64,000 nucleotides of DNA from Arenicellales bacterium. Its GTDB lineage: Bacteria > Pseudomonadota > Gammaproteobacteria > Arenicellales > Poriferihabitantaceae. Below are positions 1 through 7,316 of the stretch, piece by piece (the first letter of the stretch is position 1; every line of letters starts with the position of its first letter). The DNA lies in the NCBI GenBank assembly GCA_965116335.1, contig OZ220677.1:409629-473628 (forward strand). The letters are read 5' to 3'. A program made the position numbers and the translations under genes. Under the pieces are notes generated by a model, which had not been told where the DNA came from, did no database searches, and saw nothing but the letters and a program-made list of their open reading frames with translations.

Positions 1-720
1 AGTTGCCCCGCTGATGCCGATCCTGGGCAGACAGGGAATAAACACCACGGCGACGCCGGCTTGGGCACAACGCTGCTGCAAGGCGGGTACGAAATGCGCG
101 GGATCGGTTTCGGCCGTGAGGGAGCGGATATCATCCAGCGCCTGCCGAAATGCGGGTTTGTCATATGGCTGGCACTCGATGTTTGCAGCCTCCAGCTCGC
201 CTTGGCGCAGCCAGGCAGAAACCGCCTCCGGGAAGATTTCATGCTTGTTGTGCTGACGGTAGGCGACGGCCACGTTGGGCCAGATATCGTCCCATTGCTC
301 CACGCTGGCAATACCGAAAAAGCGCAGTACTTCATCGAGCTGCTGCTTTTTGTCCTTATGCTTTTTTAGCCATCCCATTTTTACCATAGCGTTGACGGGT
401 ATACGTTTGAGCCAGCTGATGTCTTTTTCCAGCTGAACCTCTTCCGCCAACCGCGCGCGGGTCTCCTGGTAGTGGGCATCCAGATTGAGCCAGTACTCGA
501 CTGGCATACCCAAGGCACGCTCCAGCTTGATAGCGGTTTCAGGCGTGATAATGACCGTACCCTTGCCCTTGAGAATGGTAATGATGTGCTTTTCACTTAA
601 GCCCGTGCGCTTGGCCAGTTCGGTCCGACTCATGTTTCGCAGTTCGAGCTCGTAGTCCAGCGCCTCGCCGGGAGTGACCGTGTAGTCAGGTGTATAGTGG
701 TTGATGGCTGCGTTATCCAT
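1..720 (-). CDS. higA: HigA-family antitoxin (XRE HTH fused to an ImmA/IrrE-type region), 3' end outside the window
   Basis: Absent from the ORF track because it runs off the edge. Manual translation from ATG 720: MDNAAINHYTPDYTVTPGEALDYELELRNMSRTELAKRTGLSEKHIITILKGKG...ITPETAIKLERALGMPVEYWLNLDAHYQ...AWLRQGE...AGVAVVFIP. Start overlaps the higB stop. Confidence 0.88.
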   Translation of the reverse strand, partial: MDNAAINHYTPDYTVTPGEALDYELELRNMSRTELAKRTGLSEKHIITILKGKGTVIITPETAIKLERALGMPVEYWLNLDAHYQETRARLAEEVQLEKDISWLKRIPVNAMVKMGWLKKHKDKKQQLDEVLRFFGIASVEQWDDIWPNVAVAYRQHNKHEIFPEAVSAWLRQGELEAANIECQPYDKPAFRQALDDIRSLTAETDPAHFVPALQQRCAQAGVAVVFIPCLPRIGISGAT

Positions 721-1060
721 GGGTGTCCTCAATACCTAATATCTTGATGGCGGTAATACGGTGCCAATCCAGCCCACCTTCCGGCCGCTTTGGGGGCGGG
801 TTGTTTAGCGGCTGGACGATCAACCGGTACGGGCCGTCCAGATCCAGACTGAACGTGCCCTTGCGCTTGCCCGTCAGTTCGTGGCACCGATGTGGTGAAC
901 TATAGGGCGGCGCAAATACGCCCAGATTTGGGGCTGCCCGCAATGCTGTCATCACCACCTTGATTCGCTTTGCGCGCTGCTGCCCGAAAACCTTGAGCAT
1001 CGTCTTTTCTTCGTTAAATTGCTTTCGCAGCTTCTTGCTGGAAAAATCGATATCAATCAA
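713..1060 (-). CDS. higB: HigB/RelE-family toxin (killer-protein type)
   Basis: 115 aa basic protein, IDFSSKKLRK...PHRCHELTGKRKGTFSLDLDGPYRLI...IEDTH; lies directly upstream of the HigA-like gene (toxin-first order). Confidence 0.88.
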   Translation of the reverse strand: MIDIDFSSKKLRKQFNEEKTMLKVFGQQRAKRIKVVMTALRAAPNLGVFAPPYSSPHRCHELTGKRKGTFSLDLDGPYRLIVQPLNNPPPKRPEGGLDWHRITAIKILGIEDTHG

Positions 1061-1306: not shown

Positions 1307-2794
1307 CTAGGACATGAAGCCACTACCACCACAAAAGTCACACATACTATGCAATCCGCCCGTGCCCCTACATCGCGAGCACGTCATCCTGTTAGGTGTA
1401 TTGCCAAGACTATTGGAACCACCATCTTCAGCGGGCACGTCGTCCACATCATTTTCTTTGATGATTTCGCCAATATCGAATGGGTCAAATGATAGTCCGT
1501 ATGCAACGGATACCCGGTCATAATCATCCTCGCGTAGTCCACTCGCTTCTAATTGATCAGGCTTTGGTAGCTTCATGGCTTTGACCGGGAAACCGAAAAA
1601 CTCCCCGTTCTCAGACAAGAATATCTCCGTATAGAAATCGCAACCCGCACCACCTCCGCAAAGAAACACTGGCACGCCATCCTCCCATCGTCGAGAGAGT
1701 GGATACCGACAATTCTTGGTATGCCGTAACAGGTTGCCCACCGCTTTAATCACTCGTTGCTTGAAGGGTGAGTCATTGCGCTGGAAGATGGCGATATCAA
1801 TCCCAAGTAGCGAAGCGAATTCCGTTTTCTCAGGGACAGGGGCAAACGGAGCAAGCCCCTTCTCTTCCTTGAGCCCTCGCCCCTCAATACGTGACCTAAC
1901 AAGAAAGCGCGTGCCCAAGCGCTCAACCGCTTTGGCGAAAATCGGGAACTTATCCTCTCCCTCTACTTCATGGACATTAAAAATCGTTGCATCCAGCGTC
2001 CCTGCTCCCACATCGACTAGTAAGTGCAAGTCTGACTGACGTAAAGGAGACCTGATATATCCGGTTACTTGTGCGACAAATTCTGGAAATAGTGATACTG
2101 CCTCCCAATGCAAATCACGTTCTGAAGCCCCCGATTCCTCTTGAGTGCTGCTCTTCTGCCAAGCTTCCTTAATGCTTTGCTCTGACACTTCTCCCTCATA
2201 TGCGCTTGCGAACCAAGCAGCAGCAATCATTCGCTTGTATGAGGCCGCCAGTCTTTCATCGTGATAACTACTGGTGGGCAGGCCTACATTGACCAACCAA
2301 TCAATGTAATTGGAACCGTATACGCCTTGCTTATTGTCAAAAATGAAGGCTCGCACCCGTCGTAGCACCAAGGCAAGGTAAGTAGCAGCACTCTGTATCT
2401 CGGAGTCTTCGAGTTTTCCCTCCAGCAGTGACATCTTCAAGTCTGTGTACTGCTCACCTATAGGTGAGTCGATCGAGCGAAGACCTTCCTGGGTCGACCA
2501 AAACACTGTTGGCAGCAAGTAATCGCTGGTCTTCTCACCACGTCCTCTGAGCGGGATTGCGATCCTTATACGCTCTTCTCCAACGATAACCTTGGTGAAA
2601 GCTGTCCCAAAATCCAAGCCAATGACTAACTGCTTGTGTGGTGCAGATGGACCAATACCAGCGAACTGCGTAGCGATACCGCTTGATCGTGCTTTTCCCA
2701 TCGCACGTATGCCTGAATTTCTGGCCTGGTCGGGTGCCGATGTACTGACTACCTGCTTTTTTATCAAACCTTTTAGGACATCTTCACATGACAT
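1307..2794 (-). CDS. Hsp70/actin-fold (ASKHA) ATPase-like protein with C-terminal DnaJ-type zinc-finger motifs; function unknown
   Basis: Phosphate-1 IGLDFGTAFTKV, connect-1 FPEFVAQ, phosphate-2 LLVDVGAGTLD, adenosine FLCGGGA, connect-2 SVAYGL. The tail CSRCRGTG...CDFCGGSG is two CxxCxGxG repeats. Confidence 0.75.
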   Translation of the reverse strand: MSCEDVLKGLIKKQVVSTSAPDQARNSGIRAMGKARSSGIATQFAGIGPSAPHKQLVIGLDFGTAFTKVIVGEERIRIAIPLRGRGEKTSDYLLPTVFWSTQEGLRSIDSPIGEQYTDLKMSLLEGKLEDSEIQSAATYLALVLRRVRAFIFDNKQGVYGSNYIDWLVNVGLPTSSYHDERLAASYKRMIAAAWFASAYEGEVSEQSIKEAWQKSSTQEESGASERDLHWEAVSLFPEFVAQVTGYIRSPLRQSDLHLLVDVGAGTLDATIFNVHEVEGEDKFPIFAKAVERLGTRFLVRSRIEGRGLKEEKGLAPFAPVPEKTEFASLLGIDIAIFQRNDSPFKQRVIKAVGNLLRHTKNCRYPLSRRWEDGVPVFLCGGGAGCDFYTEIFLSENGEFFGFPVKAMKLPKPDQLEASGLREDDYDRVSVAYGLSFDPFDIGEIIKENDVDDVPAEDGGSNSLGNTPNRMTCSRCRGTGGLHSMCDFCGGSGFMS

Positions 2795-2807
2795 TTGTAA
2801 TTACACC

Positions 2808-5800
2808 TTACTGAACCAGGATCGCCCCGCAGCACACCTCGGATTGCAAGGGCCGCAACTTTGATTTCAAATTCAACTTTTCTCGTTGAACGTCGAACCG
2901 TTCTTTGATTTTTCTGATTTGGCCTTCGGTCGGAGGAATCATTCGTGTTTTTCCTGCAACACGATACCGATTCAACAACTCGTAACGGGTATTCAGTTGA
3001 CGATCCCGATGCCGTTCTGCTGATTTGATTTGGAACGCCACACGGTCTTCGTTCTCATTTTTTCGTTGAATCTGTTCAGCATCATAGTCAGCTTCAAGAG
3101 CTTCGACACAACGATCCAAGGCACTGACAAAGGACTCAACATCAAGCACACTCGTCACTTCCAGCCAGTCTGCCCCATCAATACGAGCAAAATTAAGCAA
3201 CGCCCAGGACTCGTCTCTGGACAGCAATCTGTCTGACTGAATCTCCACGATTCGAACCGGGAGTTCCTCCTCAACCTTGATGCCCGAGAACTCCCAGCGA
3301 TTGACAAAGAACGCATAAGTACCAGGCACTATATCTCTGGACACCTCCAAGCGGATTGCCACCAACCGATAAAACGCCTCGTTCTTCTCGCGTAGTTCCT
3401 GCCCGACGAACCGGATCAATGGGTGAAACTGACTAATCACCTCATCTCGAGTCGCCGGGTCCCTGACCTTGTTTGCAAACTTGCATCGAATAGTCTCTCC
3501 GGTAGCAAGTCGTGTCAGGCCATGAAGTTTATGTTTGGTAATGAAATCCCCTAGCGAGGCAGCCACGGTGGCGGGTAGTCTGAGATCAAATCGCTGTTCA
3601 TCCGATGACAGCTGCTTGAATTCGAAGCCCTGACAAAACTTATCAAGGTAGTCTTTTACATACGCAACCAAGTCTTCTTCGGTGATGCGTTTTTTGAACT
3701 GTTGTGCCGCCTGCACTTCGTCGAGAATATAGCCACCATGTGCTATCAGATGCGATGCCTGTTTTTCGAGCTCATCCTGGTCGTGACGGATTCTCTCGAC
3801 AGCCATCGCTGTTTGTTCAATACGCTGTTGCTCCTGCTCTGGCGTCAACGGCTCTCGTAGCAAATCCGCTGTCAGATCCGATATCTGCTCTCCGAGAATG
3901 GCTTCCATACCGCCAAGAGCCCGCTCGAAGATACGTAATCTCGTATACAGGCGCTCATGGATCCGATGATCTATAGTATCCGTAAACAACAGATTAACGA
4001 TGCTGATCTTGTCGGCCCGTTGACCAATGCGGTCGATACGACCTATCCGCTGCTCCACCTTCATAGGGTTCCACGGAAGATCGTAGTTGAACAGCACACG
4101 ACAAAACTGAAGGTCCACGCCCTCACTCGCTACTTCAGAAGAAAGCAGGACTGTGATATCCGGGGACTCCTTGAACCTTCTGATAACTTCCTGCTTCGTC
4201 TCCTTCATGCCGCCGACCAGAACCTGGGATTTGATGCCATCTTCAAGAAGCCGCTCCGCAAGATAGGCCAGCGTTTTTCGGTAGAACGAAAACACAATCA
4301 GTTTCTCATCAGAGTTATCCACCAAATACTCTCTAACCGCCTCGCGGAACATCTCGTACTTGTTATCGTTCTCCCTCAGTGCCTTCAAACTAATGAGTGG
4401 CAACACGTCATTTCGAAGACGTTCGATCAGAGGCGAAATCTCCACGTCACCACTCTCGTAACCAAAGTCTTCGTAGATTTGCTCCTCGTAGCTTTCGTAT
4501 TTCTCTTTCCATGCTGTTGCTGCCGCATACATACAGCTGGACACTTGTCGCTGAGGACCAGCAAGCAGAAACCCATCGCTGATGTCAGATTCCCAGGCAT
4601 AGCGCCGTATCGCTTCGGTAACGAGCTGATAAAACTGCCACTCAACACCATCTTTGTCTAGCTCGACGAAACGTTTCACGGGTTCGCGTATAACACGCCA
4701 CTCGGTAACCTCTGATTTGCGTGTCCGAGTAATGGCATGGCGTAGTAAATTGACCTTTTCGACTCGATTGGCCAAGCGGATACGCCCCGCTTTACTTGCG
4801 AGGTAATCGGTCAGGTCTTCCGATGAAACAAGCTCATCTAACTGTCGGCTGCTCTTCAGCAAGGGATGCTGTTGTGCAAGCGAGAGCTCTTCTCGAATCT
4901 GGTCTGCATCAGGGCGTACATTCAGAACCAGATCTCGTGCTTTCTGCAGATGTTCATTGGCTGTAATAACCTGCGGGAACACCTCCTTTACACTGAAAGA
5001 ATCTGGATCGACCAGATTCAACAAATGAAACAGATCGTAGTCACTCAGATTGATGGGGGTTGCTGACAGTAGCACCACATTGTCCGCTACACCTCGTAGA
5101 AGCTGTCCGAGCTTGGCAGTCTGGCTTTCAGGATTCCGTAGATAATGAGCCTCGTCGATGATGACGAGGTCTACCAGAGGCTCCTCGGTGGCTTGTTCCT
5201 CGAGAAACCGAGCCAGCTTGGCATCTGCACTGGTCTTCTTTTCTTCATCGCGCCAACCCGAGGGGGGGCGCAAACCCTGCACGCTACAAACGATCCCTTT
5301 CCCATCCGGGACGTTGTAACGATCCTGCTGAAGATACTTCAGTGCCTCAGCCGCCCCCATAATTTCGGCATCAACGCCGAAACGGTTCGCCAACTCGTCG
5401 CACCATTTTTCCCGCAACATCGCAGGACATACTACCATTAAGCGTCGCGCATCAAAACGTGCTCGCAATTCTGTCCATATTAAGCCCGCTTCGATCGTCT
5501 TACCCAAACCAACCTCATCGGCAATCAGCAAACCATTTGATGGCGAATCCAGGAAAGACAGGACTGGTTTGTACTGATACGCATAAAAATCCGTGTTGGT
5601 GGCATCCATACTGTAGACAAGGTTAGCGAGACGACCACTCAGATGAATGTGGGTGAGATTCCTGCGAAGATCGCGCACACGACCGAATCGCCCCTCAGCG
5701 ATGAGATGTTCCCAGTCGGAATTATCGTCATCGATCACCTCGAGTTCGTAGTCAGGTTGGAATGTCTTTCTCTCCGGGAACACAACCTGGTATTTCAAGA

Positions 5801-5924
5801 TGCCGGCTTGTGCACGGTGCTTTCCGGTCAATACGCCTTGCCGTCCAGGATCACTCTTGAGGCGGACAATCGTTCCTGGTGGAAGCAAATCTTTACTCTC
5901 TGTATCTGGCAATTTTACGGACAT
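2808..5924 (-). CDS. SNF2-family (SF2) helicase/translocase
   Basis: LLIADEVGLGKTIEAG (motif I), IIDEAH (II), LSATP (III), SEGVDLQ, YDLPWNPMKVEQRIGRIDRIGQ (V/VI); 1038 aa with a coiled-coil-like C-terminus. Confidence 0.92.
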   Translation of the reverse strand: MSVKLPDTESKDLLPPGTIVRLKSDPGRQGVLTGKHRAQAGILKYQVVFPERKTFQPDYELEVIDDDNSDWEHLIAEGRFGRVRDLRRNLTHIHLSGRLANLVYSMDATNTDFYAYQYKPVLSFLDSPSNGLLIADEVGLGKTIEAGLIWTELRARFDARRLMVVCPAMLREKWCDELANRFGVDAEIMGAAEALKYLQQDRYNVPDGKGIVCSVQGLRPPSGWRDEEKKTSADAKLARFLEEQATEEPLVDLVIIDEAHYLRNPESQTAKLGQLLRGVADNVVLLSATPINLSDYDLFHLLNLVDPDSFSVKEVFPQVITANEHLQKARDLVLNVRPDADQIREELSLAQQHPLLKSSRQLDELVSSEDLTDYLASKAGRIRLANRVEKVNLLRHAITRTRKSEVTEWRVIREPVKRFVELDKDGVEWQFYQLVTEAIRRYAWESDISDGFLLAGPQRQVSSCMYAAATAWKEKYESYEEQIYEDFGYESGDVEISPLIERLRNDVLPLISLKALRENDNKYEMFREAVREYLVDNSDEKLIVFSFYRKTLAYLAERLLEDGIKSQVLVGGMKETKQEVIRRFKESPDITVLLSSEVASEGVDLQFCRVLFNYDLPWNPMKVEQRIGRIDRIGQRADKISIVNLLFTDTIDHRIHERLYTRLRIFERALGGMEAILGEQISDLTADLLREPLTPEQEQQRIEQTAMAVERIRHDQDELEKQASHLIAHGGYILDEVQAAQQFKKRITEEDLVAYVKDYLDKFCQGFEFKQLSSDEQRFDLRLPATVAASLGDFITKHKLHGLTRLATGETIRCKFANKVRDPATRDEVISQFHPLIRFVGQELREKNEAFYRLVAIRLEVSRDIVPGTYAFFVNRWEFSGIKVEEELPVRIVEIQSDRLLSRDESWALLNFARIDGADWLEVTSVLDVESFVSALDRCVEALEADYDAEQIQRKNENEDRVAFQIKSAERHRDRQLNTRYELLNRYRVAGKTRMIPPTEGQIRKIKERFDVQREKLNLKSKLRPLQSEVCCGAILVQ

Positions 5925-6018
5925 CTTTTACCTATTGTGAATCACTTATTGCAGACGATCAAATACCCAACTGAGGTGCCAGGTTCCACTGCCATACTAA
6001 TCACCGCATTCTGTATCG

Positions 6019-7062
6019 TCATTTCATCACTGCTCCGAATTCTTCGTCGATCTCAAACAAATCAGGCGTAGAGCGATGAACGCCAATACCGTGTTCCATC
6101 AGAAGTATCACGAGTTGTTCCCCATTCATCAGGGCAATAGGAGTCTTGTCTGCCTCGGCAGCTTCCTTGACAGCACCTCGACTGAAGTTGCTGGTGGTGA
6201 TGATCAGGCCTTGCTCGTGCACTCCCAGGCTGCCGCGCACCTGCTGTACCACCGGAGCCTGTATATTGTTCTTGATCTTCCATTTCTTGACCTGAACGGC
6301 CATTTTGATCCGAACCACATCGCCCACCACCAGGGTGCCACGGACATCAATACCGCCGTCGCCGCTGAGCTTGGTCACCTCGACCTTCTCGAAACCCATC
6401 TCCGCCAGCAACTGCGAGATAAGTTCCTCGAACTCTCCGGGCTTCATAGCCAGCAGGCGGTCACGCAGAGCCTTTCGGACTTGCTGGTTGTGCTGCTCGA
6501 TTTGAGACGCCAAACCGCGCCCCATCCATTGACTCAAACCCACATAGCCACGGCCGTGTTGCACAAATCGAGGACGGTCGCCGCGTTTCTGCTGTCGCTT
6601 GATTTCGGTAATCACCTGCGCGTACATAGTGGCCTCCGGCGTCTTTCCGCTGGTAACCAGCCATCTTTTTTCAAGTGCCTGCCCAGTGATCTTCTTGTAG
6701 TGCATCGGTTTCTTGCCGCCAAACTCCTCAAGCACCTTCTGAGCACAATCGGTGAACGACAAACCAGTGTTCGAAGAGGGGGTGTTTGGAACTTGGCCAG
6801 CTTTCGGAGGAGTGGACTCAGTATTTTCCTTTTGCTTGAAGGTATCTCGAAGCGCGAATGTCTGAGCGCCAGTCTTAACGAAGGGTGATTTACTCCCCAT
6901 CTTATTGATGTCGGAATAAATCTGGGCGCTGACCGTATTACTCGGGGTCTTACCTTTGGACTCCCAGAGACCATTCGCCCTGATCTTCTCGGCAATGTCC
7001 TTGGCATGCAGCGACTTACCCGCCTTCTGCAAAACCTGAATGGCAGCAGTTTTAACGTCCAT
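6019..7062 (-). CDS. mrr: Mrr-family restriction endonuclease with two N-terminal HARE-HTH domains
   Basis: Two repeats of the type AIQVLQKAGKSLHAKDI...SKGKTPSNTVSAQIYSDI and AQKVLEEFGGKKPMHYKKI...TSGKTPEATMYAQVITEI. Mrr catalytic region FEELISQLLAEMGF...GDGGIDV...AVQVKKW...GLIITTSNFS. Start placed at ATG 7062 behind GGGGAGAG. Confidence 0.88.
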   Translation of the reverse strand: MDVKTAAIQVLQKAGKSLHAKDIAEKIRANGLWESKGKTPSNTVSAQIYSDINKMGSKSPFVKTGAQTFALRDTFKQKENTESTPPKAGQVPNTPSSNTGLSFTDCAQKVLEEFGGKKPMHYKKITGQALEKRWLVTSGKTPEATMYAQVITEIKRQQKRGDRPRFVQHGRGYVGLSQWMGRGLASQIEQHNQQVRKALRDRLLAMKPGEFEELISQLLAEMGFEKVEVTKLSGDGGIDVRGTLVVGDVVRIKMAVQVKKWKIKNNIQAPVVQQVRGSLGVHEQGLIITTSNFSRGAVKEAAEADKTPIALMNGEQLVILLMEHGIGVHRSTPDLFEIDEEFGAVMK

Positions 7063-7225
7063 GACTCTCCCCCGCGGCGGATTGTCCACTCTGCTTCTGG
7101 TAGGTCAAGCCAAAGATGGTGTCGGTTGGTTTCATAGATCCTCCAGTCGATTTCTCGCACCAGTGGTGCGGGTTTTTCAGACCGGTGCACGACTCAAAAA
7201 AGTTAGGAGTAGTGGTTGACAGGTT

Positions 7226-7316
7226 TGGCGGAGAGAGAGGGATTCGAACCCTCGATACGCTATTAACGTATACTCCCTTAGCAGGGGAGCGCCTTCAGCC
7301 GCTCGGCCATCTCTCC
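7226..7316 (-). tRNA. tRNA-Ser(GCT)
   Basis: Reverse complement GGAGAGATGGCCGAGCGGCTGAAGGCGCTCCCCT-GCT-AAGGGAG...GGTTCGAATCCCTCTCTCTCCGCCA; long variable arm, encoded CCA, usual position after csrA. Confidence 0.97.

Follow-up and report, generated by a model that had tools for sequence, protein, structure and literature searches.

The RNA polymerase recycling factor RapA of Escherichia coli is a Swi2/Snf2 (SNF2) ATPase, and in eukaryotic SNF2 remodellers the motor is teamed with actin or actin-related protein (Arp) subunits. Ofir et al. reportedly described DrmD in 2018 as an SNF2-like helicase belonging to class 1 DISARM. Motors of the RapA/DrmD type are found again and again in DISARM, BREX and ARMADA, where their role is poorly understood because they always form part of large multi-gene systems. 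In ARMADA, the part of the source that deals with ArmA presents it as a BrxHII/RapA-like SNF2 protein that cannot protect without its Walker A and Walker B residues (PMC12458937). Hsp70-like proteins appear in other settings: within the portion of the CoCoNuTs source used here, the Hsp70-like protein CnuD partners McrB-like GTPases, keeps its substrate-binding domain (SBD) and has a degenerate ATPase site (PMC11090510), and the corresponding portion of Kaur et al. 2020 places HSP70-only proteins in GTPase-centred (GAP1-type) systems (PMC7159879). Here we describe a pair of adjacent genes, found in a 64,000-nt stretch of bacterial DNA (hereafter the window), that couples a SNF2 motor of this kind to an ATPase resembling the nucleotide-binding domain (NBD) of Hsp70, and that recurs as a unit across many bacterial lineages.

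Conserved linkage of SNF2 and an Hsp70-like ATPase

All positions are counted along the window, which corresponds to G000:C1:409629-473628 of the source genome (G000); L-numbers denote loci, and G401, G403, G404, G406 and G407 are congeners. The pair comprises the following genes.

2808-5924, minus strand: RapA/DrmD-like SNF2 (Swi2/Snf2) ATPase, 1038 aa, first gene of the pair (Pfam, PADLOC, NCBIfam and AlphaFold2 (AF2))
1307-2794, minus strand: Hsp70-NBD-like (ASKHA-fold) ATPase, 495 aa, second gene of the pair (AF2, Foldseek and profile comparison)

A pattern scan covering one genome per species recovered relatives of the ATPase at 50 loci, in which SNF2 was located by tblastn with the window's protein. 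SNF2 lies directly upstream of the ATPase gene, on the same strand, in 45 of these 50 loci, and this pairing is far beyond chance. In the 43 loci where the two ORFs follow each other directly, their spacing ranges from -56 to +33 nt, and seven of these loci show a 4-nt overlap; in the window, 13 nt separate the SNF2 stop from the ATPase start. These observations support SNF2 and the ATPase as a conserved two-gene core, an arrangement that had been proposed for this DNA in an earlier reading made from its letters alone (the sequence-only reading). Five loci lack SNF2: in L006 and in L029 the match lies where the contig ends, L054 is a contig of 1.5 kb, L035 has a fragmented ATPase, and the fifth is L033.

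Judged by their record titles, the proteobacterial hosts of these loci are Gamma-, Alpha-, Beta- and Zetaproteobacteria, and the others include Desulfuromonadaceae, Acidobacteriota, Latescibacterota, Binatia, Acetothermia and Gemmatimonadaceae, together with Verrucomicrobiota (including Akkermansia), Planctomycetales, Treponemataceae and Streptomycetaceae. A distant pair on a Leptolyngbya plasmid (L066, NZ_CP046159.1, 14040-19498) has the reversed order, with a 744-aa ATPase-like protein preceding SNF2; this pair adjoins a CRISPR-Cas locus.

The linkage was also examined from the side of the motor. In a sample of 400 other genomes of the phylum, five carry a full-length SNF2 of at least 36% identity, and the ATPase is adjacent in five out of five; four weaker SNF2 proteins (~1200 aa, ~30% identity) lack an adjacent ATPase. 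Phylogenetic analysis of 48 SNF2 sequences with FastTree places 38 of the 39 pair-linked proteins in one clade (support 99) and three DrmD proteins encoded beside DrmMI in a clade of their own (support 100), with the SNF2 of L045 unresolved beside the ~1200-aa group. In keeping with a single unit, the pairwise protein distances of SNF2 and the ATPase correlate across 34 pairs (Spearman 0.92, reached by 0 of 2000 permutations). Fusions of SNF2 to the ATPase were not found among longer proteins, which is weak evidence, and co-folding of the whole ATPase with the C-terminal half of SNF2 only (residues 545-1038) gave no verdict (score 0.01, mark 0.32). We infer that the two proteins act together.

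Predicted properties of the two proteins

Pfam recognizes Helicase_C (6.1e-21) and SNF2-rel_dom (1.9e-20) in the SNF2 protein and detects no nuclease domain. The AF2 model (predicted local distance difference test score (pLDDT) 77.8) has its best PDB matches in E. coli RapA (6bog and 8t0l), extending over ~1000 columns with E values of 1.4e-31 to 5e-30 and 17-19% identity. Across 34 homologues there is little or no variation in the Walker A motif DEVGLGKT (residues 136-143), in DE(AH) (257-260) or in motif VI. With the NCBIfam RapA equivalog, the protein scores 151 bits against a cut-off of 576. By sequence and model, this is a Swi2/Snf2 ATPase of RapA-like architecture and is not the RapA equivalog.

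Defence-related models also recognize this protein. The PADLOC DrmD model PDLC02623 spans its full length at 945 bits, and the NCBIfam model DISARM_DrmD (NF038317) aligns to residues 62-1029 of 1038 with 423.5 bits, compared with a cut-off of 610. Matches to PADLOC BrxHI/BrxHII (215.6 bits) are partial and fall in two stretches, and those to ZorD are weaker (NF041790, 40.7 bits versus a cut-off of 1500; PADLOC ZorD, 62.8 bits, partial). Judged by its sequence, SNF2 is a paralogue of DISARM DrmD. Outside the window, the same genome encodes a second SNF2 protein (G000:C1:948805-951435, ~1218 aa) that is 33% identical to the first and belongs to the clade without an ATPase partner.

The 495-aa partner matches no Pfam family and no NCBIfam family. 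Its homologues, 619 at E<=1e-3 among 8000 candidates scored, are almost all unnamed, and the full library holds 1850 representatives at E<=1e-3, 1246 at 1e-10 and 631 at 1e-30. The nearest clusters in the ESM Atlas are likewise unnamed 'hypothetical protein' sets, and one lower-ranked cluster carries PF00012 on 12% of its members. An AF2 model built from an 80-sequence alignment (pLDDT 89.6, predicted template modelling score (pTM) 0.86) was compared with the PDB by using Foldseek, and the top matches are DnaK/Hsp70 NBDs (E 8e-12, prob 1.0, template modelling (TM) score of at most 0.56, ~14% identity). A profile of 80 homologues also matches the DnaK NBD (E 9e-4).

Several sequence features agree with this fold assignment. 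GLDFGT (residues 59-64) aligns to DnaK 4-10, the phosphate-1 motif, and DVGAGTLD (261-268) to DnaK 192-201, the phosphate-2 motif; a CGGG motif follows at 379-382. The sequence-only reading had named GLGKT of SNF2 and DFGT of the ATPase, and both are present. No variation is seen across 80 sequences at D61, G63, K120, E238, D261, G263, D268 and G380-381, and at least 90% of the sequences keep T64 and T266. K120 and E238 are the putative equivalents of DnaK K70 and E171. On the evidence of the model and of the phosphate-1, phosphate-2 and adenosine motifs, the protein belongs to the ASKHA superfamily and resembles the Hsp70 NBD.

This ATPase nonetheless appears to stand outside the Hsp70 chaperones proper, since it has no Pfam HSP70 match and no predicted peptide-binding domain. 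The modelled fold ends near residue 445, and beyond it lies a low-confidence, Cys-rich tail with no substrate-binding domain or lid. The tail contains two CxxCxGxG zinc-knuckle motifs, which 13 of 34 pair ATPases possess, and these 13 belong to the subclade closest to the window. The likeness of this tail to the DnaJ zinc finger is one of pattern only, because the Pfam model for that finger gives no match. At the other end, residues 1-12 (window 2759-2794) carry a motif common to most homologues, MS-W-K-D-x-L-x-x-L, which is predicted to form a helix; a linker that is variable and modelled with low confidence separates it from the ATPase fold. The modelled helix could serve for docking, as a peptide, or could be amphipathic and lie in a membrane.

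The sole PADLOC match of the ATPase is to PDC-M61B, with 22.6 bits over 39 residues. Assignment to that family was considered and rejected: pair ATPases from two of five other genomes match at 20-25 bits, in the phosphate-2 region only, and because the match is confined to this region we regard PDC-M61B as a different ASKHA family. Elsewhere in the genome, outside the window, G000:C1:2039661-2041088 matches PDC-M61A with 660 bits, and its B partner belongs to another family of proteins with ASKHA motifs.

A variable island next to tRNA-Ser

The pair resides in an 11,149-bp island (G000:C1:405705-416853), in which the remaining annotated features of the window are as follows.

7226-7316, minus strand: tRNA-Ser(GCT) (ARAGORN), the right border of the 11.1-kb island, with its 3′ end facing the island
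6019-7062, minus strand: Mrr-type (type IV-like) restriction endonuclease with two HARE-HTH domains (Pfam, PADLOC)
713-1060, minus strand: weak HigB/RelE-like toxin open reading frame (ORF), a separate context module (Pfam HigB-like_toxin)
1-732, minus strand: XRE-HTH plus Peptidase_M78 (ImmA/IrrE-like) protein, a separate context module (Pfam HTH_3, Peptidase_M78)

Three co-oriented genes behind tRNA-Ser had been noted in the sequence-only reading, and their coordinates, minus-strand orientation and gaps were all reproduced, including the 94 nt between the Mrr stop and the SNF2 start. The Mrr ORF begins at a GTG and spans 6019-7089; position 7062 is its first ATG (M10), which lies 163 nt from the tRNA gene. 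A promoter scan gave five predictions compared with 5.7 in shuffled sequence, and thus no excess, and a terminator scan returned weak hairpins only.

The 'HigBA pair' of the earlier reading is there as two ORFs, and the names fit them less well. The toxin candidate reaches 20.8 bits (E 5.6e-4) with HigB-like_toxin, below the cut-off of 27, and the supposed antitoxin is an XRE-HTH and Peptidase_M78 protein of 370 aa in full (ORF L001:1120-2232), which extends past the left end of the window and has a weak PADLOC PD-Lambda-2_B match (1.7e-7). A 92-nt stretch (1019-1110) between the HigB-like ORF and a small ORF at 1095-1283 has an 89%-identical copy at G000:C1:309169-309260; the two copies may represent a small repeat or have a regulatory function in common.

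To the right of tRNA-Ser(GCT) lie the core genes csrA, aspartokinase, alaS, recX and recA. Beyond the window's left end come a NERD-UvrD helicase (L003:17754-19415) and HipBA, followed by core genes at the island's left side, which encode a PLP-dependent enzyme of Cys/Met metabolism (metC-type), gshA and dus. In the congener G401 the site is empty, with the end of the PLP-enzyme gene 37 bp from tRNA-Ser, and in four other congeners it holds other DNA, of ~1.4 kb (G403 and G407), 6.7 kb (G406, with a second partial tRNA copy) and 9.6 kb (G404). Because the site is empty in G401 and holds different DNA in other congeners, we regard the 11,149-bp segment as inserted at a tRNA-Ser site that varies. 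The island ORFs include no recognized integrase, and no exact copy of the tRNA end of at least 12 nt was found at the left border. Searches for the ATPase gene found it in none of seven congeners, in a single genome out of 18 from the family (at 42% identity) and in none of 12 others of the order. The other modules of the island, namely the Mrr-type nuclease, the HigB-like/HTH-M78 pair, the NERD-UvrD helicase and HipBA, appear to be independent of the pair.

Genomic context and a proposed role in defence

The immediate neighbours of the pair are 75 ORFs (36 upstream and 39 downstream), and the numbers given for them are raw counts, with no background gene set. PADLOC models found among them include PDC-M16A (six), PDC-S68 (five), NERD plus UvrD (five) and GajB-like helicases (four), and a Pfam phage integrase is present in two. 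Single loci place a type I restriction endonuclease, MkoA/MkoC-like helicases, a C5 methylase or a DRT reverse transcriptase beside the pair. The proteins matching PDC-S68 are RecD-like, 1243-1274 aa long, and encoded immediately upstream of the pair in L028, L030, L038, L045 and L046.

The conjugative plasmid pAA03 carries the pair with restriction genes on one side and Hachiman/AbiE on the other, annotated as 'helicase-related protein' and 'hypothetical protein'. Matches to the ATPase occur in five of 72,556 plasmid records, in none of 50,697 phage records and, by pattern scan, in none of the IMG/VR sequences. The pair is accessory, borne on islands and plasmids, and located mostly among anti-phage genes.

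From this context, we lean towards the view that the pair is a stand-alone anti-phage or anti-plasmid module. The pair is a horizontally mobile cassette of two genes rather than three, which are probably co-transcribed and translationally coupled and which evolve as one unit. The first gene encodes a RapA/DrmD-like SNF2 translocase on double-stranded DNA with intact motor motifs, and the second an Hsp70-NBD-like ATPase with an intact nucleotide site and no peptide-binding domain. In the defence model, the motor may track along invading DNA or remodel DNA-protein complexes on it, as RapA does with RNA polymerase, and the ASKHA ATPase may serve as a nucleotide-gated sensor or regulatory subunit that gates the motor or directs it to its target. 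That target would be the invading DNA or its replication or transcription machinery. The pair has no conserved nuclease or methylase partner, and interference would therefore be non-degradative or would proceed via nucleases encoded elsewhere.

Several observations weigh against this interpretation. No effector domain is recognizable in the pair by Pfam, and the genes around it are called defence genes on the strength of PADLOC names, which in many cases denote mere candidates (PDC-*). Ordinary genes flank some loci; in L005, for example, a 358-aa ORF with no Pfam or PADLOC match lies upstream and is followed by rapA. L033 is a true exception to the linkage, with an intact ATPase and no SNF2 within 5.4 kb upstream or ~2 kb downstream. 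The search from the side of the motor scored only two candidates per genome, and two of its five positives duplicate other loci (L056 is the same as L019 and L058 nearly the same as L059). Finally, the correlation of protein distances between SNF2 and the ATPase is expected for a co-inherited unit, partly reflects shared descent and is no proof of contact.

Some of the same evidence could fit a role outside defence, in the upkeep of mobile elements or in nucleic-acid housekeeping. Examples would be RapA-like recycling of transcription or replication complexes on acquired DNA with a chaperone-like helper, or maintenance of plasmids and islands by an actin-fold ATPase. The full-length match of the SNF2 fold to RapA, the lack of a detected effector domain and the position of the L005 pair two genes from rapA are in keeping with this idea, as are the presence of the pair on conjugative plasmids and the fact that the ASKHA superfamily includes ParM-type segregation proteins, to which the ATPase has weak profile matches. 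A housekeeping role accords poorly, however, with the sporadic distribution of the pair (five of 400 genomes in the phylum sample and none of the seven congeners), with its location in a variable tRNA hotspot, with the restriction, Hachiman, AbiE, DRT and candidate defence genes that recur beside it, and with a SNF2 score below the RapA equivalog cut-off. We consider a non-defence role unlikely.

If the pair does act in defence, its manner of action could parallel that of eukaryotic SNF2 motors gated by actin-superfamily subunits. In a prokaryotic counterpart, the ATPase would sense a phage or plasmid cue and switch the motor on, and the motor would block the invader by making it strip or stall replication or transcription complexes without cutting DNA. 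The likeness is one of analogy, and we hold this specific mechanism to be rather doubtful. Sth1-Arp7-Arp9 appears at rank 50 in the Foldseek list of the SNF2 model.

Relation to DISARM and other named systems

A further possibility is that the pair is an accessory or remnant of a class 1 DISARM or ARMADA-type system and is inert without a module of the DrmD-DrmMI-YprA type. The descent of SNF2 is compatible with this scheme, given its DrmD matches of 423.5 bits (NCBIfam) and 945 bits (PADLOC). Furthermore, in L007, L012 and L022 a second SNF2 and a DrmMI-type methylase adjoin the pair, and these additional SNF2 proteins are bona fide DrmDs with DISARM_DrmD scores of 640, 1041 and 1406 bits, respectively. 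In L007 a DruE/YprA-like gene follows DrmD and DrmMI, in an ARMADA-like arrangement, and in L012 a DRT reverse transcriptase (RT_UG19) lies between DrmD/DrmMI and the pair.

The arrangement with DrmD and DrmMI is seen in none of the other loci, and in the three that have it DISARM supplies its own DrmD. Five pair-linked SNF2 proteins, that of the window included, score 380-445 bits with DISARM_DrmD, below the cut-off of 610. Pfam finds no methylase, YprA/DUF1998/MZB, PLD, PglX/PglZ-type or ZorABC-like gene among the island ORFs. Genome-wide, the best match to DrmMI (PDLC02643) reaches 23.1 bits and lies 2.2 Mb from the pair, and the sole MZB/DUF1998 match is at 2.22 Mb, 1.8 Mb from the pair. 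Because of the sub-cut-off scores, the separate clades and the lack of DrmMI or MZB partners nearby, we interpret the pair as a module built on a DrmD paralogue rather than as a DISARM remnant, and we judge dependence on such a system to be very unlikely.

The locus resembles none of the named systems in its gene content, judged by the same sequence models. It would not be classed with DISARM class 1, as the DrmD score falls short and DrmMI and DrmA/DrmB/DrmC are lacking, nor with Zorya type I, given the ZorD scores and the lack of ZorA/B/C. It would also fall outside BREX and ARMADA, for which a PglX-like methylase with PglZ, or a YprA-like helicase, would be expected beside SNF2 and is not found there. 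The sequence-only reading had stated that the locus lacks the genes that accompany the helicase in DISARM, BREX and Zorya, and had not recognized the combination as a named system. Both points hold up: the partners are missing from the island by Pfam (and DrmMI and MZB also on the genome-wide searches), and neither PADLOC and NCBIfam models nor the literature yielded a name. No paper on SNF2 paired with an Hsp70-like/ASKHA protein in defence was found, and supplementary tables may list such neighbourhoods.

The Mrr-type nuclease as a separate passenger

The protein encoded upstream of the pair is a predicted type IV-like (Mrr) restriction endonuclease that combines a PD-(D/E)xK domain of the Mrr_cat family (7.6e-26) with a putative DNA-binding N-terminus, where Pfam reports HARE-HTH (4.9e-41, two stretches). 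PADLOC matches it to the single-gene candidate PDC-S02 (154.7 bits) and to mREase_IV (57.5 bits). Around the ATPase homologues, SNF2 is adjacent in 45 of 50 loci and the window's Mrr is matched by tblastn in none of the 50. This includes L005, in which the ATPase and SNF2 proteins are 87% and 92% identical, respectively, to those of the window. Among the 75 immediate neighbours, Mrr_cat is absent from the listed Pfam families and can therefore be present in one of them at most. Thus, Mrr is a separate passenger of the same island and not a component of the pair.

The suggestion of the sequence-only reading that Mrr is the effector of a three-gene system, directed to foreign DNA by the SNF2/ATPase pair, draws on the shared orientation and 94-nt gap, on the lack of a nuclease in the pair itself and on the fusion of SNF2 with Mrr-like domains in ZorD-type proteins (PADLOC description), but it has very little probability in view of these counts, the relation of Mrr by itself to PDC-S02 and the lack of relationship between the window's Mrr and the restriction gene that precedes the pair on pAA03 (E 1.5).

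Other third components were sought in the flanks. Clustering of flanking ORFs from the 50 loci gave no third gene cluster in more than five loci. A superfamily 1 (SF1) helicase was considered, as UvrD_C_2 occurs in 11 of the 75 immediate neighbours, but these belong to several unrelated families. The NERD-UvrD helicase of the island was likewise set aside as a core part, as a relative adjoins the pair in L030 only (39% identical).

Implications and comparison with known systems

A minimal version of a SNF2-based system, consisting of the motor and an Hsp70-like ATPase, would give a simple handle on the role of the motor in immunity. The pair is widespread, from Pseudomonadota to Verrucomicrobiota, Acidobacteriota, Actinomycetota and Cyanobacteriota, and the partner family has the 1850 representatives noted above. 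If the pair does function in defence, then an Hsp70/actin-fold protein would join the list of defence regulators, and if the actin-like gating mechanism were also true, immunity could be achieved without a nuclease or methylation. For annotation, a strong PADLOC 'DrmD' match does not imply DISARM, and the Mrr gene here is best read as a separate type IV-like restriction gene.

Comparison with described proteins places the pair as follows. E. coli RapA is the best structural match to SNF2 over its N-terminal, motor and C-terminal parts, but RapA is encoded by a core gene, whereas the island SNF2 is accessory, ATPase-paired, 17-19% identical and scores 151 rather than 576 bits. Eukaryotic SNF2 assemblies with actin/Arp share the combination of a SNF2 motor with an ASKHA-fold subunit, by analogy only: the pair ATPase is nearer to Hsp70 than to actin, no HSA-type binding helix has been shown, and common descent is unsupported. 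The Hsp70/DnaK NBD is the best fold match of the ATPase, and the phosphate-1 (DxGT) and phosphate-2 (DxGxGTxD) motifs align, but the pair protein is ~14% identical, lacks an SBD and lid, and in one subclade bears the double CxxCxGxG tail.

Among defence proteins, DrmD of class 1 DISARM is homologous to the island SNF2 over nearly its full length and is also found in defence islands, but the island protein scores below the equivalog cut-off, belongs to a separate clade and is partnered by an Hsp70-like ATPase instead of DrmMI/DrmA/DrmB/DrmC. CnuD and the HSP70-only proteins are, as far as the portions of their sources used here describe them, also divergent Hsp70-like ATPases in predicted defence operons, and their partners are McrB-like or GAP1-type GTPases rather than SNF2 motors (PMC11090510, PMC7159879). 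ArmA of ARMADA and BrxHII of BREX share with the pair the reuse of a RapA-like Swi2/Snf2 motor as a defence module, but in the part of the source that covers them their partners are a PglX-like methylase and a YprA-like helicase-nuclease, both absent here (PMC12458937). It is credible that the pair is an unnamed variant of the SNF2-based defence modules, of which the window holds one more instance.

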